From Bacteroidota bacterium (lineage in GTDB: Bacteria > Bacteroidota > Bacteroidia > Chitinophagales > JADIYW01): a stretch of DNA of 64,000 nt. Made by a program: the position numbers and the translations under genes. The notes under the pieces were generated by a model. It did no database searches, had not been told where the DNA came from, and worked only from the letters and a program-made list of their open reading frames with translations. Location: positions 16,963 through 80,962 of the forward strand of contig JAQBNI010000145.1 in the NCBI GenBank assembly GCA_028288625.1, in the 5' to 3' direction. Positions 2,674 through 52,093 of the stretch are shown here, piece after piece. Within the stretch, counting starts at the first letter, position 1. Each line of letters starts with the position of its first letter.

Positions 2674-3645
2674 TTATACTTCTCTATTATGTTCTAAAGT
2701 AATCGCAACATTTCCTTTTTTGTGTCCTTTCTCAACATAAGCGTGTGCTTCTGCAATTTGCACAAAGGAGTAAGTTTTATCAATAACTGGCTTCAGCTTG
2801 CCAGTTTCAATTAGTTCCTTAAGAAAAATAATGTCTTTCGCAGAATGGCTTATTACACCAGTCATTACTTTCTTGCTACTTGTTATTGAAGTCCAAAATC
2901 CTTGAAACATCTCTGACATTTCAGCCGCACTTAAAATCAATAATCCACTTTTATTCAGCGACTTTAAACTACGGGAAAACGAAACTTTATTAACGGTGTC
3001 AAAAATTACATCATACTTTTCACCATTTTGTGTAAAATCTTCTTTTGTGTAATCTATTGCTTTGTGGGCTCCCAGGGATTTTACTAAATCAATATTTGCA
3101 GTGCTGCATACTCCTGTAACAGTCGCCCCGAAATGCTTTGCAAGTTGAACGGCTGCGCTACCAACTGCTCCTGATGCTCCGTTAATAAGAACTTTTTGTC
3201 CGGGCTTTATTGATGCCTTTTTAATGAAATGTAATGCTGCAGTTCCTCCAAATGGAATAACGGCTGCTTCTGTATGAGTAAGGCTGCCGGGTTTTAATGC
3301 CAGCGTTCCGTTTTCAGGTAAGCATTTATATTCGGCATAGGCGCCAAAGCGCATATCTGTATGACCAAATACCTGGTCACCAATCTTGAAAAGTTTTACA
3401 TCTTTACCAACAAGTTCAACTTCACCCGAAAAAACGCTACCCAGAATATTTATTTTAGGTTTAATAAGACCGAAAAACAGTCTGACAGCAAATGGGTCAG
3501 CTTTCCTAAGGCGCCAATCACCTGAATTGACTGCTGTAGCTTTAACGCTTAACAGAATTTCATTGTCCTTGGGTGAAGGCTTTTCTACTTCTTTGAGTTG
3601 AAGAACCTCTGGTGGTCCGTATTGTGTGTAAACTATTGCTTTCAT
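2674..3645 (-). CDS. NAD(P)H-dependent medium-chain dehydrogenase/reductase (quinone oxidoreductase / Zn-ADH family)
   Basis: [17 protein letters not shown] start and a [15 protein letters not shown] Rossmann motif. I chose the ATG at 3645 rather than the track start at 3717, because the upstream 24 codons look non-coding. Confidence 0.8.
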
Positions 3646-4509: not shown

Positions 4510-5877
4510 CTACTTCCCTTTTCCTTTCCACAAGATCAGCACCGTATATATAAGGATCTTAAAATCCATCAGCAGCGAAATATTTTCAATATATAAAAGG
4601 TCGTACCGCATGCGCTGATGCATTTCCTTTAGATTGGACGCGTAACCAAATTTTACCATGCCGAGCGAGGTGATACCGGGCTTCACACGCTGTAATATCT
4701 CATATTGCGGCGCAGTTTGTATGATCCGGTCTATAAAATATTTTCGTTCCGGTCTTGGTCCCACCAAACTCATGTCGCTAATTAAAACATTCCACAGCTG
4801 TGGTAATTCATCCAGCCTGTATTTACGCATCGTTCTTCCGAACGGTGTGATGCGTTCATCATTCTCAGAAGACAACATCGGCGTTCCGTTTTCAGCATTG
4901 GTGAACATCGACCTGAATTTTATGATGGAAAATATTTTTCCGTTCAGCCCAACTCTATCCTGTTTAAAAAATATATTTCCATGTGATGAGCGTTTCACGT
5001 TCCATGCAATGAATGCTAAAAAAGGAGAAAGAAAAAATAGTCCGGAAAATGAAATAACAATATCAAAAATACGCTTCAGTATTTTTTGCCACGGTAAAAT
5101 AAGCTCTGTTGGAATTTCAATCAGCGGTGAACCGAATATACTTTGTGTCTTAAATTTCCCCGATAAGATATCGAGTTCGTCCGGCAGTATCTGAACGGTT
5201 TTTCCTTTGTTTAAAAAATAAATGATGTAATTCTCAATAGTCTGTGTAGAAGATTTCCCGAAGGCGAGGATTACATCTTCATAATTAGTTTTTATTTCAG
5301 ACAAGTCAAAGTCTTCAGTTACCAAATGTTTTTCCACGATCCTGTACGGTAGTTTGATTTTAGAAGTTATAATTTCATTTTCAACTTTTTTACAATTTTC
5401 ATTCGTGCCGATCAGTAATGTGGGAATGAACAGCTTGCCGTTCCCGATCTGCCGTTTCGCGATGGTCAATACAGTGACGCGTAAAAAAGTAGTAATAAAG
5501 AAATGCAGCAGTAAAAACCCGAAAAATAAAAAATAATAATCGCGGTATCCTTTGATAAGGTCATTCAGCATCAGGCTAAAGAATAAGATAATGCCGCCGG
5601 TGACCGCATGCAAAGCTGTTTTGTATATTTCTACTAACCTCGATTTCTTGAGAACGCTGGTATAAGTATTTGAAAAGAAATAATAAAGGATCCAGAAAAA
5701 CGGGACGATCACAATGCCATACAAAAATTTTCTGTCCTGCACCAATGAGGAAAAAGAGAATGCAACTTTTTCAATATAAATTTTCCTGAAAATAAAAAAA
5801 CATAGCCACGAGAGGATTGCAGCAAAATAATCTGTCACCAAATAATATATGATTCCCTTATTCGCACTTTTGCGCAT
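4510..5877 (-). CDS. polyprenyl-phosphate glycosyl-1-phosphate transferase (WbaP/EpsB-type bacterial sugar transferase)
   Basis: N-terminal TM helices and a C-terminal sugar-transferase domain (FKQDRVGLNGKIFSIIKFRSM, DELPQLWNVLISDMSLVGPRPE). Start set at the MRKSANKG ATG (5877), because the track extension to 6084 overlaps the upstream gene. Confidence 0.85.
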   Translation of the reverse strand: MRKSANKGIIYYLVTDYFAAILSWLCFFIFRKIYIEKVAFSFSSLVQDRKFLYGIVIVPFFWILYYFFSNTYTSVLKKSRLVEIYKTALHAVTGGIILFFSLMLNDLIKGYRDYYFLFFGFLLLHFFITTFLRVTVLTIAKRQIGNGKLFIPTLLIGTNENCKKVENEIITSKIKLPYRIVEKHLVTEDFDLSEIKTNYEDVILAFGKSSTQTIENYIIYFLNKGKTVQILPDELDILSGKFKTQSIFGSPLIEIPTELILPWQKILKRIFDIVISFSGLFFLSPFLAFIAWNVKRSSHGNIFFKQDRVGLNGKIFSIIKFRSMFTNAENGTPMLSSENDERITPFGRTMRKYRLDELPQLWNVLISDMSLVGPRPERKYFIDRIIQTAPQYEILQRVKPGITSLGMVKFGYASNLKEMHQRMRYDLLYIENISLLMDFKILIYTVLILWKGKGK

Positions 5878-19065: not shown

Positions 19066-19074
19066 ATCCAACAT

Positions 19075-19122
19075 TATCATCCTGAACCAAGTCTACCGTC
19101 ATCCTGAACTTGTTTCAGGATC
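19075..19122 (+). repeat. REP (half copy plus full GTCATCCTGAACTTGTTTCAGGATC) at the left edge of the R-M island
   Basis: The half copy atcatcctgaacc is followed by the full copy at 19098-19122. Confidence 0.75.
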
Positions 19123-19208
19123 TAATAGAACAAAGAGAGATTTTCTTTCAAATCTGATACTATCTGTATGAAAAACTTTATCTTAATGGCTAAAGAGTTT
19201 AGCTGTAG

Positions 19209-19877
19209 ATGATCTTAAAAGAATTGAAGCCTAAAAAGGCATTAAACAAAGCTTTTTTAAAAGTAAAACCCAGCAGACCTCAAATTGAAGGTTTCAAGAA
19301 CAATCTTCTTAATTTACTTGACAGAACAAATGATAAGGAAAGCGAAGAGTTCCACAAAAATCTTGTCATCGACTTTTTAAAAAGAACTTACTACGATCCA
19401 AACCATTTTATAAATACCAAAGGTCGAAACGACCTTGTTATTCATAACGGCAACACAGCTAAAAGTTCTGTTGGTGTTATCGTTGAAGCGAAAAAGCCAA
19501 CAAACAAAATGGAAATGATAACTACTAAAAAACTGAACGCAAAAGCGTTTCAGGAATTAGTGTTATACTATTTACGTGAAAGGATTACACATAAGAACCT
19601 TGAAGTAAAATATTTGGTAATCACCAACATTAACGAATGGTTTATTTTTGATGCTGCCTTATTCGACAGGCTTTTTGCACAAAACAAAAACCTTGTAAAA
19701 CAATTCAATGACTTTGAAGACGGTCGATTGGCTGATATCAAAACCGATTTTTTCTACAGGCAAATTGCTGAACCGTTTATTGGTGGTATCACCTCAGAGA
19801 TTGAATTCACTACTTTAATCTTCAGGATTATCAAAAGCCACTTCGCAATTCTAATAAGGCAGATGATACTTTGTTGA
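19209..19877 (+). CDS. Type IIG restriction-modification enzyme, N-terminal nuclease-domain fragment (frameshifted from 19871..22987)
   Basis: PD-(D/E)xK-like motif (NDLVIHN ... VIVEAKKP). The last ~22 codons (TTLIFRIIKSHFAILIRQMILC) look like out-of-frame read-through. The next ORF's frame is open from 19805 and continues the expected sequence. Confidence 0.75.
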   Translation: MILKELKPKKALNKAFLKVKPSRPQIEGFKNNLLNLLDRTNDKESEEFHKNLVIDFLKRTYYDPNHFINTKGRNDLVIHNGNTAKSSVGVIVEAKKPTNKMEMITTKKLNAKAFQELVLYYLRERITHKNLEVKYLVITNINEWFIFDAALFDRLFAQNKNLVKQFNDFEDGRLADIKTDFFYRQIAEPFIGGITSEIEFTTLIFRIIKSHFAILIRQMILC

Positions 19878-22800
19878 TTGCCTTGTATAAATTGTTGTCG
19901 CCGGAGCATCTTTTAAAACTTCCCTTCATAAATGACAGCAACAGTCTCGACAAACGCTTTTATACGGAGCTGTTGCACATCATCGGTTTAACAGAAACCA
20001 AAGAAGGAGGCAAAAAATTGATTGACCGGAACAAACCGGGAGAAAGACATACAGGTACAATATTGGAAGATGCTATCATTCAATTGGACAGTCTGGATAA
20101 ATTAAGCCGACTGGATAAACCAAACCAGTTTGGTCATAGCACACAGGAACGCTTGTTCAATATTGCTTTGGAGCTTTCTATCACATGGATAAACCGCATT
20201 TTATTTTTAAAATTATTAGAAGCTCAGCTCATCACTTATCACAAAGACGATAAGTCCTATTCGTTTCTCAATCTTAATAAAATCAAGGAATATGATGACC
20301 TGAACAACTTGTTTTTCCAGGTATTAGCAAGAAAATATAATGAGAGAAATGAAGATGTTCAGAGGGCTTTTGAGAAAGTACCTTATCTGAATAGCTCTCT
20401 TTTCGAGCCGACAGAACTTGAGCAGGTTACTTTGTTTATCAGCAATTTGAAAGATCTAAAGACTATTCCGGTTATTTCATCAACTGTACTGAAAGATCAG
20501 CAAGGAAAAAAGCGGACAGGTAATATTTCTACACTTGAATATTTGTTTGAGTTCTTGAACGCTTACGATTTCAGCAGCGAAGGTTCGGAAGAAATTCAAG
20601 AAGATAACAAAACGCTTATCAATGCTTCGGTGCTTGGTTTGATTTTCGAAAAAATAAACGGTTATAAGGACGGCTCGTATTTCACTCCGGGTTTCATCAC
20701 CATGTACATGTGTCATGAAACGATCCGAAAAGCCGTTGTGCAGAAATTCAATGAAACTAAAAAATGGAACTGTAACACCGTTGAAGAACTTTACGACAAA
20801 ATTGAAAACCGTACGGAAGCCAATAGCATTGTAAATAGCATTAAAATTTGCGATCCTGCCGTTGGCTCTGGTCACTTTCTCGTTTCGGCTCTTAATGAAA
20901 TGATTGCCGTAAAAAACGACTTAAAAATTTTGCAGGATCGTCAAGGCAAGCGTCTTAAAGAATACCACATGGAAGTGGTAAATGATGAATTAATTGTGAC
21001 TGATGAAGAAGGAGAGTTATTCGAATATAATCCGACGAACAAAGAGAGTCAGCGCATACAGGAAACACTGTTTCATGAAAAGCAAACGATCATCGAAAAT
21101 TGTCTTTTCGGTGTAGATATTAATTCTAATTCTGTTAAGATTTGCCGTTTGCGTTTGTGGATCGAGCTGTTAAAACACGCTTATTACAAAAGTACCACAG
21201 AACTTGAAACACTTCCGAATATTGACATCAATATCAAATGCGGAAATTCCCTGGTAAGCCGTTTTGCAATTGATGCCGACCTGAAACATGCACTCAAAAA
21301 AAGTAAATGGACGGTGGAGAGCTACCAAATAGCCGTTGATACTTATCGGAATGCCGAAAGCAAGGGGCAGAAAAGAGAAATGGTTAAACTGATTGACGAT
21401 ATCAAATCGGATTTCAGGAGTGAAATTTCATCGAACGATCCGAAAGTCAAGAGGCTTTATAGTCTTAATGGGGAATTATTGAAAATGACAACTCAACATA
21501 GCCTTTTTGGAATGGATAAAAAGGAAAAAGCAGATTGGGAAAAAAAGGTGCAGCAACTCACTGTGGAAATAAAAAAATCGGAAGCCGAGATTGAAGAAAT
21601 AAAAGCGAATAAAATGTTTGAAAATGCTTTTGAATGGCGGTTTGAATTTCCGGAAGTGCTGAATGACGGGGGAGATTTTGCAGGCTTTGACGTGGTTATC
21701 GGAAATCCTCCATATGTGCAACTGCAAAAAATGGGACAGGATGGAATTGATTTAGAGAAAATGCGGTTTGAAACTTTTGCAAAAACCGGCGATATCTATA
21801 GTTTATTTTATGAATTAGGCTATCGAATACTTAAACCATCAGGTGTATTGACTTATATTACTTCTAATAAATGGATGAGAGCCGGTTATGGGGAAAGTAC
21901 CCGTAAGTTTTTTGCAGAAAAAACAAACCCGGTTTTATTGGTAGATTTTGCCGGAGCAAAAATATTTGATGAAGCTACGGTTGATACCAATATTTTAATG
22001 TTTGAAAAACAGCAAAATCAGCATAAAACATTTGCCTGTATTGCGAAGGAATTTAACGTGTTAAATAATTTGAGCGTTTTTGTTAAGCAGGAGGCTACTG
22101 TTTGCTCATTTTTAAAATCAGACAGTTGGGTTATACTTTCGGGTATAGAAAATCGAATAAAGGAAAAGATTGAAAGCATTGGAACGCCTCTAAAAAAATG
22201 GAACATACAAATAAACTATGGCATTAAAACAGGCTTTAATGAAGCCTTTATTATTGATGGTGAGAAACGTAAAGAGTTAATAGAACAAGATCCCAAAAGT
22301 GAAGAAATTATACGACCGATTCTTAGGGGACGTGATATAAAGCGGTATGGATATGATTTTGGAGATGTGTGGTTATTGTTTATTCCATGGCATTTTCCCT
22401 TACATAATGACCCTACAATTACAGGAGCATCAAGTAAAGCTGAAGATGCCTTTAAATCTCAATTTCCAGCAGTTTATAATCATTTAGTACAGCACAAAAC
22501 GGAACTATCAAATCGCAATAAAGCAGAGACTGGGATACGTTATGAATGGTATGCATTACAGCGTTGGGGAGCAAATTATTGGGAGGATTTTTCTAAACAA
22601 AAAATCATTTGGATTGAATTGGCTGACAAAGGACGATTTGCTCTCGATACACGAGATAATTATATTACTTTGAATGGAACATTTATCATGGTAGGATATG
22701 ATTTGGAATATTTATGTTGTGTATTAAATAATCCAATAACTAGCTGGCACTTTAATACCTTTTGTATCAGTTCTGGTGTTGGTACAAATCAATGGAGAGA

Positions 22801-22987
22801 ATTTTATGTAAAAGAACTCTTCATCCCAAAAGTCAATGAAACTAAGAAAAGGAACATTGTTTCTCAGTTCTCAGATTTAAAAAAAGATGAAGGCTTAACA
22901 GTCGCCAAACAAAGAATCCTGGATCATCAAATTTATTCATTGTTTAAGTTAACACAAGAAGAAATAGAGTTTATTGAATCTCAATAA
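19871..22987 (+). CDS. Type IIG restriction-modification enzyme, N6-adenine methyltransferase plus C-terminal TRD (Eco57I-like family)
   Basis: SAM motif I ICDPAVGSGHFLV and catalytic motif IV VVIGNPPYV. TaqI-like C-terminal specificity domain (GIKTGFNEAFIIDG, IIRPILRGRDIKRY). The track start is a TTG, and the frame is open upstream to 19805. Confidence 0.85.
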   Translation: MLIALYKLLSPEHLLKLPFINDSNSLDKRFYTELLHIIGLTETKEGGKKLIDRNKPGERHTGTILEDAIIQLDSLDKLSRLDKPNQFGHSTQERLFNIALELSITWINRILFLKLLEAQLITYHKDDKSYSFLNLNKIKEYDDLNNLFFQVLARKYNERNEDVQRAFEKVPYLNSSLFEPTELEQVTLFISNLKDLKTIPVISSTVLKDQQGKKRTGNISTLEYLFEFLNAYDFSSEGSEEIQEDNKTLINASVLGLIFEKINGYKDGSYFTPGFITMYMCHETIRKAVVQKFNETKKWNCNTVEELYDKIENRTEANSIVNSIKICDPAVGSGHFLVSALNEMIAVKNDLKILQDRQGKRLKEYHMEVVNDELIVTDEEGELFEYNPTNKESQRIQETLFHEKQTIIENCLFGVDINSNSVKICRLRLWIELLKHAYYKSTTELETLPNIDINIKCGNSLVSRFAIDADLKHALKKSKWTVESYQIAVDTYRNAESKGQKREMVKLIDDIKSDFRSEISSNDPKVKRLYSLNGELLKMTTQHSLFGMDKKEKADWEKKVQQLTVEIKKSEAEIEEIKANKMFENAFEWRFEFPEVLNDGGDFAGFDVVIGNPPYVQLQKMGQDGIDLEKMRFETFAKTGDIYSLFYELGYRILKPSGVLTYITSNKWMRAGYGESTRKFFAEKTNPVLLVDFAGAKIFDEATVDTNILMFEKQQNQHKTFACIAKEFNVLNNLSVFVKQEATVCSFLKSDSWVILSGIENRIKEKIESIGTPLKKWNIQINYGIKTGFNEAFIIDGEKRKELIEQDPKSEEIIRPILRGRDIKRYGYDFGDVWLLFIPWHFPLHNDPTITGASSKAEDAFKSQFPAVYNHLVQHKTELSNRNKAETGIRYEWYALQRWGANYWEDFSKQKIIWIELADKGRFALDTRDNYITLNGTFIMVGYDLEYLCCVLNNPITSWHFNTFCISSGVGTNQWREFYVKELFIPKVNETKKRNIVSQFSDLKKDEGLTVAKQRILDHQIYSLFKLTQEEIEFIESQ
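22073..22085 (+). repeat. left copy of the 13-bp inverted repeat AGCGTTTTTGTTA (candidate inversion crossover site)
   Basis: Encodes S-V-F-V in frame in the Type IIG gene. The exact reverse complement lies at 23804..23816 in the same codon phase of the silent cassette. Confidence 0.6.
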
Positions 22988-23002
22988 ATTCTATTTCTTC
23001 TT
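22956..23002. repeat. 22-bp imperfect inverted repeat (1 mismatch, 3-nt spacer) at the tail-to-tail junction; possible bidirectional terminator hairpin
   Basis: aagaagaaatagagtttattga atc tcaataaattctatttcttctt. Both arms encode the shared C-terminus EEIEFIE.Q-stop of the two TRDs. Confidence 0.7.
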
Positions 23003-23819
23003 TAGATAAACCATAAAGCGTATATACTAATTTATCAATTTTCTTTTCATAAGTTGGGGAAATGTCATCCTCTAAAAATGATGTGAATTGATTTTGTTCT
23101 AATTCAGAAATTTTTGGAACTGGTAGTTGCTCAATAAACATTGGTTTGTACTCAAAGTAACCTCCATTTCTTGTTACTCCTAATTTTCTTATATAATAAT
23201 CACCTACTTTAGAATTAAGGATTGTCAAAAGATATTTATTTGCGGGAACAATCATTGGACAAGGAGCACTCACAAAAACGCCTTCGGGAGCTATAGAATA
23301 AGACGCTTTCAAGTTTAAATTCCCCCACACTATTTTTTGTTTAGAAAAATCCTCCATATATGCACAGTTCCGCAAATTGTAAGGTGTTTCACCTTTATCC
23401 GCGCGTTTTTCCAATTCAGGATAGAACTGGTCAAGATGTTTTTTGATAGCAGGATAATCGGCTATACTTATAGGTTTTATTCCCTTTTCCTTTGTGCCAT
23501 TGTGCGTATTTATAAGCCACAAATCCGCAAAATCGTATACATATCTTTTTATGTCCCTGCCGCGTAAAATAGGTCGTATAATCTCAGCTGATTTTGGATC
23601 GATCGCTATGAGTTCATCTTTTTTCTTGCCGTCAATAATAAATGCTTCGTTATAACCAGTCAGAATTCCTCGATAAATATTAATATCCCAATCTTTCAAG
23701 GGGATTCCGACAGCTTCGATCTTTGCTTTAATACCTTGTTCAAGAGGTGATAAAATCCCCCAACTATCCTTTCTATTGAAACTGTATATAGATGCAAATT
23801 GCCTAACAAAAACGCTGGA
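22971..23819 (-). CDS. silent alternative TRD cassette: 5'-truncated, start-less copy of the Type IIG C-terminal specificity domain
   Basis: The frame is open from 23819 (in-frame TAA at 23820-23822) with no ATG; the track ORF 22971..23699 begins at an internal TTG. SVFVRQFASIYSFNRKDSWGILSPLEQGIKAKIEAVGIPLKDWDINIYRGILTGYNEAFIIDG aligns with residues SVFVKQEATVCSFLKSDSWVILSGIENRIKEKIESIGTPLKKWNIQINYGIKTGFNEAFIIDG of the main gene. Confidence 0.75.
   Translation of the reverse strand, partial: SSVFVRQFASIYSFNRKDSWGILSPLEQGIKAKIEAVGIPLKDWDINIYRGILTGYNEAFIIDGKKKDELIAIDPKSAEIIRPILRGRDIKRYVYDFADLWLINTHNGTKEKGIKPISIADYPAIKKHLDQFYPELEKRADKGETPYNLRNCAYMEDFSKQKIVWGNLNLKASYSIAPEGVFVSAPCPMIVPANKYLLTILNSKVGDYYIRKLGVTRNGGYFEYKPMFIEQLPVPKISELEQNQFTSFLEDDISPTYEKKIDKLVYTLYGLSKEEIEFIEIQ
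23804..23816 (-). repeat. right copy of the 13-bp inverted repeat AGCGTTTTTGTTA
   Basis: taacaaaaacgct on the plus strand. It lies at the exact 5' limit of cassette homology, one codon from the in-frame stop. Confidence 0.6.
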
Positions 23820-23821
23820 TT

Positions 23822-23859
23822 AGTGTATAAAAAAATTGACTAGGTTTTCATTATACACT
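23822..23859. promoter_or_regulatory. 38-bp palindromic site (AGTGTATAA-N20-TTATACACT) between cassette edge and recombinase gene
   Basis: Perfect 9-bp arms. It lies 5 bp from the right IR copy and 47 bp upstream of the recombinase ATG. It may be a recombinase-binding or operator site. Confidence 0.35.
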
Positions 23860-23906
23860 TTCTGTTTAATTTAAACATTTTAATTAACCACTTAAACCTA
23901 AAAATT

Positions 23907-24512
23907 ATGATTTACGGCTATATCCGCGTAAGCACCGACAAACAAACAGTAGAAAACCAACGCTATGAACTTAATCAGTTTTGCCAAAAACAAATTCTGG
24001 TTATAGACAAATGGATTGATGAAACTATTTCAGGTTCAAAAAACCTGCAAGAAAGAAAACTGGGAAAACTCCTTAAAAAAATGAGAAAAGGAGATGTTCT
24101 TATCTGTTCCGAACTCTCACGACTTGGAAGAAACCTTTTGATGATTATGGGCATTCTTAATGAATGTATGAACCGCGATATTCAAGTATGGACTATTAAA
24201 GACAATTACCGTTTAGGAAGTGATATTAACTCCAAGGTATTGGCTTTTGCATTTGGTCTGTCAGCCGAAATTGAACGCAACCTTATTTCTCAAAGAACCA
24301 AGGAAGCACTAGCACGTAAAAAAGCAGAGGGAGTTATACTTGGTCGTCCAAAAGGCAGAAAATCTTCTAAAACAAAACTTACCGGGCAAGAGAAAAAGAT
24401 CCGGGAATTCTTAGACAGAAAAGTTTCTTATTCAGCTATTGGCAGGATTTTAGGTGTGCATCGGCTGACAGTAAGCAGTTTTGTGAATGGAGAAAAATTT
24501 AGTGTGTCATAA
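23907..24512 (+). CDS. small serine recombinase (resolvase/invertase family)
   Basis: MIYGYIRVSTDKQ with catalytic Ser9, SRLGRN, the E-helix AEIERNLISQRTKEAL, and a C-terminal HTH (SYSAIGRILGVHRLTV). Confidence 0.9.
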   Translation: MIYGYIRVSTDKQTVENQRYELNQFCQKQILVIDKWIDETISGSKNLQERKLGKLLKKMRKGDVLICSELSRLGRNLLMIMGILNECMNRDIQVWTIKDNYRLGSDINSKVLAFAFGLSAEIERNLISQRTKEALARKKAEGVILGRPKGRKSSKTKLTGQEKKIREFLDRKVSYSAIGRILGVHRLTVSSFVNGEKFSVS

Positions 24513-24525
24513 AATTAAAGGATAA

Positions 24526-24550
24526 GGATTCTGAATCAGTTCAGGATGAC
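24526..24550 (-). repeat. REP GTCATCCTGAAC..TTCAGAATCC (reverse orientation) at the right edge of the R-M island
   Basis: Sequence is ggattctgaatcagttcaggatgac. Confidence 0.75.
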
Positions 24551-24559
24551 ACAGTTAAT

Positions 24560-24670
24560 GCATTAGGGATAGAAGCGGAAACAGCGTTGAAGCGGATAGC
24601 CCGACCGCGTTTGTGGCTTGTGAGTAGGCGACGCGGGAATGCCATAATAGTGAAAGTGAGAATGAAAGTG
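24560..24670 (-). repeat. second copy of the ~110-nt dispersed element, inverted relative to 11690..11812
   Basis: gcattagggatagaagcg...gaagcggatagcccgaccgcg...acgcgggaatgcc...gtgaaagtgagaatgaaagtg. Confidence 0.75.
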
Positions 24671-24727
24671 ATTAAGTATTCACATGGATTCTCTTTAGGT
24701 TAAGAGTGCGTAGGAATAAACTTTATA

Positions 24728-24752
24728 GATCCCAAATCAAGTTTGGGATGAC
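24728..24752 (-). repeat. REP variant GTCATCCCAAACTTGATTTGGGATC (reverse orientation)
   Basis: gatcccaaatcaagtttgggatgac, just downstream of the panB stop. Confidence 0.75.
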
Positions 24753-24761
24753 GGTAGTCTG

Positions 24762-50326: not shown

Positions 50327-52093
50327 TCATTCAACCTTCATCTTATTAATTCTCTTGCTTGAAAAAAACGTTTGCTTTTTTATTTCTTCTTCCGTAAATA
50401 TTTCAGGATGTACGCCATTTTCCGGCGATCTCGAAATTTCCGGTTTGCAAAATTCATTTGCAAGTTCCGTATATTTTTGCTGGAGAGCATTTAAACTATA
50501 TTGACCAAAAACATTATGTCCGCCTTCATACAACTGCAGCTGGTATTCTTCGTAAGTAGTGATATAACCGTTGTATTCATTGGCATATGGTGCGAGGATC
50601 ACATCATCGATTCCCTTAGGTTTTAAAGCTTCTTCCAGCGTTTTCTTTAATCGCCATGAAGCAACAGTGGTGATCTCAAACGGAAGAGAGCAAATAGCAA
50701 CTGAACCTAATTGTAAGATCTGTAAAGTGAGCACTTGCGGCGCCCATGGATTCAAAGAATCAAATCCACCCTGCTTCGCCATTTTTTTTATATTCAATAT
50801 CATCTCATCGGAAAAAGATGGCAATGGAATTTTTCCTGCATCAAAATTTCCTAAAAATTTTCTCTCACCGGTTGCAGCGCCGATATCTTTTACAGCCTGC
50901 GCTTTATTTTTTCGTTCAATAAATCTGGCATAATCTCCGCCTTCTTTAAGCGCTCTTTTTAATTCTTTATGACGTGTGGCGCGCGCTATCCTTCTTGCCA
51001 CTGCGCCAAGAAATGTTGGCAATCCCGGACCATCCATGATAGAGCCTTCAAGAAATGAAATGCCCATGCAGGATGGACTGGTAACGCATCCGGTTTCACC
51101 ATTTGTAAATTTCGGATCGATATTTATATTTCCAAAATCCAAAAACATGGAAATAGAATCTATCGTTTCATTTTTTATTTCTTGTATTGATGAATCGATG
51201 ATCTCTTTTGCTTTTTCGAATTGCAGATTACCGTTGAACTTAGAACTTTTCAAATCATCAGGAAAAAAGCCCTCCCATTTTCCACGGGCTGTCGGAAGTT
51301 TTGCGTTGTATTTTACACGCGCTGAAACATCGCCGCATGCACCTTGTGCAAAAGCAGCAACATATGACGGGTTATCCTTCGTAAAACTTTCTTCGAGATA
51401 AGTCGCAGCAAATCCTTTATTGTCCGAGCATAATTTAAAAAAGGTATTCGGAAGGTTAGAAGTATGCACTGCAAACCAGTTGATAGAACCCATCGGTTCA
51501 CCGCTTTCAGAAATAAAATGTAAAAGTGTCATTTCCCTGTCTACTGCGAGATGCCGGGTTTCATGCGAATATTTTTTCACTTCCGGGTTGAGGTTATAAG
51601 CGTCAACGGTTCGGTTAAAACTTACAGGTATGTCGGGTGAAAAAGTGCTTTTACCGATATGAATTTTTCCTTTCTTTTTATTTTTTTCCGCTTCCAAGAT
51701 CGCTTCTGTAATGCCGCTCACCACTTTATCATAAACTCCTTTGTGAAATCCGGGAGTCGACATATTGTAAATAACATGATACGAAAATCCGCTCGGTCCG
51801 CAATGGGTATGCTGTGCGCTCAGCAACAGGTTTTCCGTATCGTATTGTAATTCAGGATAATTTTTCTGTAAATATGCGAGTACGCCTTGTTTCAAAGAAG
51901 GTGTAATAAATCCAAGCTCGCAGTTCACCATGCAAACCTTTCGGCTTTTATCGAGCTGCTCAAAAACAAATGCCCGGGCGTACAAAGGTGTTTCTACATC
52001 GAGGGCATAATGGGTGGGCAAACCGTATCCCAATAAGCCCGTTCCTTTAAAAAATGCGGTGATATCACCTTTTCCCGTACCAATGAATAACAT
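50327..52093 (-). CDS. neutral/alkaline non-lysosomal ceramidase-like hydrolase
   Basis: N-terminal G.G..DIT...G....GY pattern and the SAQHTHCGPSG motif; about 590 aa. No signal peptide was seen. Confidence 0.55.
   Translation of the reverse strand: MLFIGTGKGDITAFFKGTGLLGYGLPTHYALDVETPLYARAFVFEQLDKSRKVCMVNCELGFITPSLKQGVLAYLQKNYPELQYDTENLLLSAQHTHCGPSGFSYHVIYNMSTPGFHKGVYDKVVSGITEAILEAEKNKKKGKIHIGKSTFSPDIPVSFNRTVDAYNLNPEVKKYSHETRHLAVDREMTLLHFISESGEPMGSINWFAVHTSNLPNTFFKLCSDNKGFAATYLEESFTKDNPSYVAAFAQGACGDVSARVKYNAKLPTARGKWEGFFPDDLKSSKFNGNLQFEKAKEIIDSSIQEIKNETIDSISMFLDFGNINIDPKFTNGETGCVTSPSCMGISFLEGSIMDGPGLPTFLGAVARRIARATRHKELKRALKEGGDYARFIERKNKAQAVKDIGAATGERKFLGNFDAGKIPLPSFSDEMILNIKKMAKQGGFDSLNPWAPQVLTLQILQLGSVAICSLPFEITTVASWRLKKTLEEALKPKGIDDVILAPYANEYNGYITTYEEYQLQLYEGGHNVFGQYSLNALQQKYTELANEFCKPEISRSPENGVHPEIFTEEEIKKQTFFSSKRINKMKVE

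Follow-up and report, generated by a model that had tools for sequence, protein, structure and literature searches.

A short inverted repeat at the constant-variable boundary of a Type IIG restriction-methylase gene in Bacteroidota is very probably the crossover site of an adjacent Mpi-family DNA invertase

We analysed a 64,000-nucleotide (nt) stretch of a Bacteroidota bacterium (GenBank assembly GCA_028288625.1, contig JAQBNI010000145.1, positions 16,963 to 80,962; hereafter the window, in whose own numbering all positions are given), which carries a Type IIG restriction-modification (RM) gene, an inverted partial copy of that gene and the gene of a small DNA invertase. The RM enzyme is spread over two forward reading frames: an N-terminal nuclease part at 19209-19877 with a D...ExK motif (Pfam DUF7149, 1.3e-87; PADLOC REase_MTase_IIG profile positions 4-185), and an open reading frame (ORF) of 1038 codons at 19871-22987, annotated as a Type IIG restriction-methylase (PADLOC PDLC03612, E 9.3e-243, profile positions 204-1245 of 1247), which contains DUF7814, an Eco57I-type N6-adenine methylase (DPAVGSG and NPPY motifs) and a TaqI_C recognition domain. 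Nuclease, methylase (gamma-class, NPPY) and recognition domains are thus all present, the match to PDLC03612 runs end to end across the two frames, and the protein would measure about 1245 amino acids (aa) if the frame were intact. The constant part of the ORF ends at 22072, and the expressed variable domain (domain A) occupies 22073-22987. On the reverse strand, 22971-23816 holds a silent, promoterless cassette of 281 codons with no internal stop, which encodes an alternative recognition domain (domain B; TaqI_C, 1e-11) and lacks a start codon. Domain A and the cassette lie tail to tail, with their 3' ends overlapping by 17 nt.

The invertase gene (23907-24512, forward strand, 201 aa) starts 91 nt past the cassette. 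Its product carries a Pfam Resolvase domain (1.4e-35, residues 2-143) with the catalytic motif YIRVST, a GRP arm and a C-terminal helix-turn-helix (HTH), for which a weak HTH_38 match was found at residues 157-190. It scored 344 bits against the NCBIfam Mpi model (NF009949, cut-off 272), residues 1-196 aligning with profile positions 1-196 of 203, and its closest solved relative is the Gin invertase of phage Mu (4m6f, E 5e-15), whose YVRVST aligns with YIRVST. With a Resolvase domain and a C-terminal HTH, it is a small serine recombinase of the Mpi/Din type. Homologues are abundant, with more than 7,800 in the protein database at E <= 1e-60 (a lower bound). Our comparative set consisted of 80 genomes encoding invertases 66-91% identical to the window's; most belong to diverse genera of Bacteroidota and a few to other phyla (loci are cited below by labels such as L067). 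Carriers in culture include Albibacterium bauzanense DSM 22554 (L005), Chryseobacterium ureilyticum DSM 18017 (L026) and Sphingobacterium spiritivorum (P0014). About 30 of the 80 loci share the arrangement of a Type IIG gene, a tail-to-tail cassette, a spacer of about 90 nt and an invertase gene.

At the boundary between the constant and variable parts, the window holds exactly two copies of the 13-bp sequence AGCGTTTTTGTTA, at 22073-22085 (+) and 23804-23816 (-); if one mismatch is allowed, the match between them lengthens to 17 nt (22073-22089 / 23800-23816; inverted-repeat pair I20). As a preliminary description of this DNA had reported, both copies are read as Ser-Val-Phe-Val in the same codon phase, in the frame of ORF 19871-22987 (+) and in that of the (-) cassette, respectively; in the cassette, an in-frame TAA and a single codon (TCC) precede the AGC of the repeat, and 5' of the repeat the window's two copies are unrelated (6 of 16 positions match). 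The same description had taken the repeat for a crossover site, and had counted equally long identical runs elsewhere in the two domains as evidence to the contrary. Such runs do exist: domains A and B, which are about 50% identical in nucleotide alignment, share exact runs of 24 nt (from 22582), 13 nt (22956), 13 nt (22073), 11 nt and 11 nt. Read literally, this result goes against the claim, but the 24-nt run is itself a second proposed crossover point, as set out below. Since equally long or longer runs are present, the case for the 13-bp repeat must rest on evidence other than its length.

Position provides such evidence, and the earlier argument, which had been made from position and not from length, was borne out across the comparative set. 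In all 20 loci with both copies available, the upstream sequences were unrelated and identity started at the A of AGCG: the two copies carried the same base at a frequency of 0.35 at position -1 and of 1.00 at positions 0, 1 and 2, with on average 6.4 of 16 matches upstream versus 16.1 of 17 within the motif. The identical stretch that begins at AGCG measured 3-4 nt in L074 and L067, 8-24 nt in most loci and up to 248 nt, only its start being fixed. AGCG is the sole contiguous match between the copies of L067, which places the exchange within these four bases. Moreover, the contigs of five assemblies (L023, L025, L029, L043 and L046) start 0-14 nt from the 17-bp motif, on its invertase side, and many further contigs of the 80-locus set stop inside the cassette; breaks at the motif or inside the cassette would be expected of sequenced populations in which both orientations coexisted.

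The 52 sites collected from other genomes defined the 17-bp motif AGCGWTTWTNTTAGACA. A position weight matrix built solely from these homologous sites, with the window excluded, was used to scan both strands of the window, and it ranked the two copies of the repeat first and second (26.1 bits at 23816 (-) and 23.7 bits at 22073 (+); next best 16.2 bits). The Ser codon is AGC in 51 of the 52 sites, six Ser codons being possible, while the encoded residues vary (V/D, F/Y, V/I/L/F) and the T's of the motif stay; on the non-coding side of the cassette, information collapses outside motif positions 0-16. These three features place the constraint on the DNA. The earlier caveat that a repeat of this length does not by itself exclude chance was therefore correct, but the repeat proved non-random by two tests, the 52-site matrix and the 20-locus identity step.

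When dyad symmetry was scored with 15-bp arms around each possible 2-bp centre, it was maximal at the centre AG (positions 0-1), with 7.0 of 15 matches in gene sites and 6.3 of 15 in sites with a non-coding outer arm, against a background of about 4. On this basis, the left crossover site (22058-22089, +; 23.7 bits) would consist of an outer half-site at 22058-22072, the proposed core AG at 22073-22074 and an inner half-site at 22075-22089, and the right site (23800-23831, -; 26.1 bits) of an inner half-site at 23800-23814, the core at 23815-23816 and a non-coding outer half-site at 23817-23831. The 13-bp repeat thus reads as the putative 2-bp core AG plus most of the inner half-site of a hix-like imperfect palindrome of about 32 bp.

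Inversion variants were observed among contigs of one Bacteroidales organism from different metagenome samples (L082-L088), whose invertase (P0070) is 91% identical to the window's; they fall into the forms L082/L085, L084/L088, L086/L087 and L083. Relative to L082, the whole inter-site segment of L086 and L087 is inverted (1705 nt, 99.8% identical), with the constant region joined to the other domain, and the outer junction falls inside the 14 nt AGCGTTTTTGTTAA, that is, the window's 13-mer plus one base. The flanks of L084 and L088 match those of L082 and L085 over more than 10 kb apart from 0-2 mismatches, and only an inner segment of 785 nt is inverted; because two polymorphic bases immediately downstream move together with the C-terminal halves, the inner junction is confined to the 15 nt GGAGGATTTTAATAG of the internal motif. 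The resulting genes are intact (1220/299, 1215/304 and 1217/302 aa), and three of the four predicted combinations of domain halves were seen in nature. The preliminary description had asked where the junctions lie at single-base resolution: for the related organism they were found within the predicted sequence, whereas the window's own sample yielded one orientation, in assembled contigs of about 8x depth only. As separate observations on these contigs, a PLD-SNF2 helicase gene precedes the Type IIG gene (L082-L088, positions 1-911), and in L087 (916-4569) the Type IIG gene is broken into pieces of 46, 300 and 837 aa.

The 24-nt run between the domains forms an inner inverted repeat (inverted-repeat pair I1), with its left copy GGAGGATTTTTCTAAACAAAAAAT at 22582-22605 (+), encoding EDFSKQKI, and its right copy at 23332-23355 (-). 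Scored with the half-site part of the matrix, both copies reached 14.0 bits and ranked joint third and fourth in the window, behind the two outer sites. Across loci, the DNA of this repeat is kept well beyond the need of the protein, the Ser codon being nearly always TCT, with substitutions to TAT or TTT, and within 7 of 18 loci the repeat is perfect over 24-32 nt. The inner motif is also the exact breakpoint of mosaic recognition domains in different genomes, with identities before and after it of 81% and 27% (L020 cassette versus window cassette), 45% and 61% (L018 versus window) and 55% and 71% (L014 versus L026). We therefore propose that 22582-22605 / 23332-23355 is a second, nested crossover point, and these data are evidence that a conserved protein motif inside the recognition domain doubles as a second place of exchange. 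Aligned on its TTAGACA end, the inner repeat would have the core GA, not AG, a difference that may prevent recombination between an inner and an outer site.

Collectively, the fixed homology boundary, the independent matrix and the natural junctions make it very probable that the 13-bp repeat is the crossover site of the adjacent DNA invertase. By analogy with Hin and Gin, for which the chemistry of cutting, rotation and religation is established (PMC3798978), a dimer of the Mpi-family invertase (23907-24512) would bind each site and the two sites would synapse; staggered cuts 2 bp apart would open all four strands at AG, and religation would follow a 180-degree turn of one half of the complex. 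The 1.74-kb segment 22073-23816 would thereby flip, the constant part (to 22072) would be fused in frame to domain B, and domain A would become silent. Segment 22606-23331 might also flip alone, by the invertase or possibly by homologous recombination, exchanging just the C-terminal halves, and with outer and nested inner pairs the locus would encode at least four alleles. In this scheme, we infer the invertase as the catalyst, the cut at AG, the difference in DNA specificity between the alleles and the continued operation of the switch in the window's genome. A broader generalization, which in our judgement has an even chance of being right, is that one Mpi-family invertase uses a hierarchy of hix-like half-sites in coding sequence (outer AG, inner GA and maybe a third at the EIIRPI codons) to shuffle sub-modules of the recognition domain of a single-chain Type IIG enzyme, that a two-cassette locus would yield four or more specificities, that the module is portable across Bacteroidota and other phyla, and that its sites of 13-14 bp escape repeat-based inverton screens.

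Several observations weigh against this account. In the window's organism, no inversion was found: in the one soil-metagenome run available, the assembled contigs (about 8x) presented a single orientation with no joints and no loose ends, a depth at which contigs cannot show minor orientation variants. The exact-protein look-up of the window's invertase returned only the window's own contig; in a metagenome contig collection, the predicted inverted left junction and a degenerate pattern covering both orientations each gave 0 matches, which indicates that the organism is absent there and makes the search uninformative. A contig break at 22014-22034, considered as a possible fork at the repeat, does not fit, lying 39 nt from the site. 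Dyad symmetry reaches just 6-7 of 15, which makes the outer half-sites weak, and the position of the cut within AGCG is inferred. In L083, an extra exchange took place inside an 18-nt identical run encoding EIIRPI (L083 3956-3973), swapping approximately the first 250 nt of both domains; this run, which corresponds to the window's 11-nt run ATTATACGACC (22307-22317, codons EIIRP), bears little resemblance to the crossover motif. At its right inner repeat (4930-4961), L082 has the two marker bases found in the left copy (GACAT; GGCAG in L085) in the absence of inversion, a 2-nt patch that looks like short gene conversion between the inner repeats. Together, the L083 exchange and the L082 patch indicate that homologous recombination also contributes in this family. 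Lastly, the Type IIG gene of the window is split by a 1-nt deletion near 19811, so that flipping might be phenotypically silent here, or the module might be in decay.

This deletion is the starting point of the alternative that survives best, namely that the module is a relic in the window's genome: despite apparently intact sites and invertase, the frameshift in the enzyme gene would make any flipping that still occurs useless. Alignment with L005, L014 and L016, in which the gene is one continuous frame, located one missing base near 19811, as a result of which the nuclease ORF (19209-19877) is out of frame with ORF 19871-22987. The deletion lies outside any homopolymer and is also present in Logan's independent assembly of the same reads; the first Met of the downstream frame comes about 275 codons in, and L087 likewise carries a broken Type IIG copy. 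The frameshifted enzyme is thus probably restriction-dead in this genome. Against decay, no defect is seen in the invertase, in either recognition domain or in either pair of sites, and a methylase-only product could be made from the TTG start at 19871. We consider a relic rather unlikely, and it would in any case be compatible with the explanation of the repeat as the invertase's crossover site.

Far less probable, in our view, is that the segment inverts by RecA-type homologous recombination or gene conversion with the neighbouring invertase uninvolved. The repeats are 47-248 nt long in some loci, the L083 exchange and the L082 patch have the appearance of homology-driven events, and inversions that persist without a local recombinase are on record (PMC9881135). 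The L086 junctions, however, lie within just 14 identical nt, the window offers 13, and L067 shares just 4 contiguous nt. Stretches of 13-14 identical nt are below the usual minimum for efficient RecA recombination. In addition, conservation of the motif from genome to genome would be superfluous for homology-driven recombination, the invertase gene always lies next to the cassette, about 90 nt away, and the half-site resembles those of the Din family. That the run is identical by chance or protein constraint between diverged paralogous domains, the cassette being a dead and never-recombining duplicate, is an explanation to which we give almost no credence and which is largely refuted: it can point to the 24-nt and the other 13-nt run in the same alignment, to the fact that a 13-mer inverted pair is not rare in 64 kb of AT-rich DNA and to the one orientation in the sample, but it does not account for a homology boundary at the same base in 20 loci, for AGC in 51 of 52 sites with the motif kept while the encoded residues vary, for the first and second rank of the window's copies with an independent matrix, or for the same sequence being the junction of real inversions between L082 and L086.

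Further features of the module were found around the two variable domains. Where the 3' ends of domain A and the cassette converge and overlap, they form a palindrome at 22956-23002 (inverted-repeat pair I3), whose RNA would fold into a 22-bp stem with a 3-nt loop (-26.2 kcal/mol, z -8.3), and the 17-nt overlap is kept in six loci, including L005, L014, L016, L018 and L026. As this palindrome stays within the invertible segment and would close the transcript in either orientation, it may be an orientation-independent terminator. An Rfam scan of the module returned nothing relevant, the sub-threshold matches at 22949-23005 merely reflecting the hairpin. Between the cassette and the invertase start, 23844-23877 (+) contains half-site-like sequences that include the perfect palindrome TGTTTAATTTAAACA and account for three of the eight best half-site matches in the window (11.7, 11.3 and 11.0 bits); the palindrome recurs at the same place in many related loci, and this region may serve in autoregulation or as an accessory site for binding. 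Within the window, high scores are confined to the two outer sites and these nearby half-site-like sequences. A pair of inverted matrix matches at 50356-50372 (-) and 50637-50653 (+), 265 nt apart (8.8 and 13.4 bits), was rejected as a second invertible element and judged to be due to chance, because both lie inside a 588-aa ORF on the reverse strand; a match at 3321, also in coding DNA, looks like chance as well. The neighbouring ORFs of the module encode a GATase-domain protein, a DUF3575 protein and PanB. An intergenic repeat resembling repetitive extragenic palindromes (REP-like), with the core TACCGTCATCCTGAAC, is present in five copies in the window (19070-19124, 24539-24760, 11879, 14709 and 40536), two of which form a 35-nt inverted pair flanking the entire RM-plus-invertase module; word depth at these repeats was about 125 in the soil run versus about 9 elsewhere, and Rfam Flavo-1 gave a sub-threshold match at 24558-24610.

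The module is also found under other taxonomic labels. Invertases about 70% identical to the window's occur in metagenome-assembled genomes labelled Alphaproteobacteria, Verrucomicrobiia, Melainabacteria and Clostridia (L061, L065, L074, L077-L079 and others), several of which have the same arrangement of Type IIG gene and cassette together with the AGCG motif. This distribution suggests that the module may have spread horizontally beyond Bacteroidota.

A flip of the recognition domain would change which DNA sequence the cell methylates and cuts, by which a clonal population could hedge against phages and may vary its gene expression through the methylome. The 17-bp motif and its proposed 2-bp point of exchange give a usable description of the target of a very widespread invertase family, and a functional site can, on the present evidence, be as short as 13-14 identical bp, under the thresholds of repeat-based screens. 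In genome annotation, where a seemingly partial TaqI_C ORF lies on the opposite strand beside a gene for a small resolvase, it should be taken for a specificity cassette and not for a pseudogene.

Among known systems, the locus resembles those of the Din family (Hin/hix, Gin/gix, Cin, Pin and Min of p15B) in having a small serine recombinase and sites that are imperfect palindromes around a 2-bp core. Judged by the symmetry peak at AG, identity that starts at the core and the 14-nt junctions, the two inverted sites would qualify as Din-type. In the Gin and Min systems, inversion joins a constant N-terminal part of a protein to alternative variable C-terminal parts. The window's locus appears to work in the same way as these tail-fibre swaps, but on an RM enzyme, not on a tail fibre or a flagellin promoter. 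To our knowledge, Bacteroidota lack Fis. Din enzymes require a Fis-bound enhancer (PMC3798978). The inner half-site CGTTTTTGTTAA is close to the right half-sites of hix (AA GGTTTTTGATAA), mix (AA CGTTTTTATGCC) and pixR (AA CGTTTATGAAAA) (Table 3 of PMC3241671), and the right half-site here, (C/G)GTTTTT..., closely resembles those of hix and mix. hixL and hixR have only the core and one half-site in common, their other halves being different (PMC3241671, Table 3), and the window's two sites likewise share just the core and one half-site. Unlike those of the Din systems, the window's half-sites are apparently 15 bp and not 12 bp long, end in TTAGACA and surround a core of AG instead of AA or GA.

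The master DNA invertase Mpi of Bacteroides fragilis is, like the window's enzyme, a serine invertase of Bacteroidota, and the latter passes the Mpi model. Patrick et al. reportedly described in 2003 that the target repeats of Mpi resemble hix. Mpi acts globally on 13 distant promoter regions (PMC4747536), whereas the window's invertase adjoins a single target in coding sequence. In the Type I hsdS shufflons of B. fragilis, S. pneumoniae (SpnD39III) and Mycoplasma, nested inverted repeats reassort half-domains to give several specificities (PMC7641763), and the window shares with them one expressed locus with silent copies and nested inverted repeats within the specificity gene. The hsdS and R64 shufflons, however, employ tyrosine recombinases, and hsdS systems have a separate HsdS subunit with two recognition domains, in contrast to the serine invertase, the single-chain enzyme and the one TaqI_C-type domain split at an internal conserved motif that we found here. 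An R64-type shufflon, with the tyrosine recombinase Rci and 19-bp sfx repeats, was accordingly rejected, the sole recombinase of the module being a serine enzyme; the term shufflon, which the preliminary description had used, therefore does not apply in the strict R64 sense, while its identification of the repeat as the crossover site of an inversion that swaps recognition domains is supported.

The closest counterparts are the programmed inversions reported by Milman et al. (Nucleic Acids Research 2023; PMC9881135), which alter Type II/IIG RM genes homologous to Campylobacter jejuni Cj0031, and for which long reads confirmed coexisting variants. In that study, Mpi-family recombinases were enriched next to Type II RM inversion targets, and the contexts given in Table 3 included a "solitary Type II RM CDS" (coding sequence) of about 1240 aa and a PLD-SNF2-linked form, the latter described in Bacteroides ovatus (PMC9881135). 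The window corresponds to the solitary context of about 1240 aa and L082 to the PLD-SNF2-linked one. As in those systems, a long RM gene and a shorter inverted partial copy lie tail to tail, with repeats in coding sequence and an adjacent recombinase, and the window shows the anatomy of a gene-altering inversion, with a 1038-aa ORF facing a 281-codon cassette and repeats near the 5' side of the variable part. The screen of Milman et al. needed repeats of at least 22 bp and left the target motifs of the recombinases as future work (PMC9881135); the 13/17-bp site of the window falls under that threshold. The window is thus a clean new example of the inversion class described in 2023 and not a new kind of system, to which comparison of sequences adds here a 17-bp motif, a proposed AG centre, a likely functional length of 13-14 bp and a candidate nested inner site.

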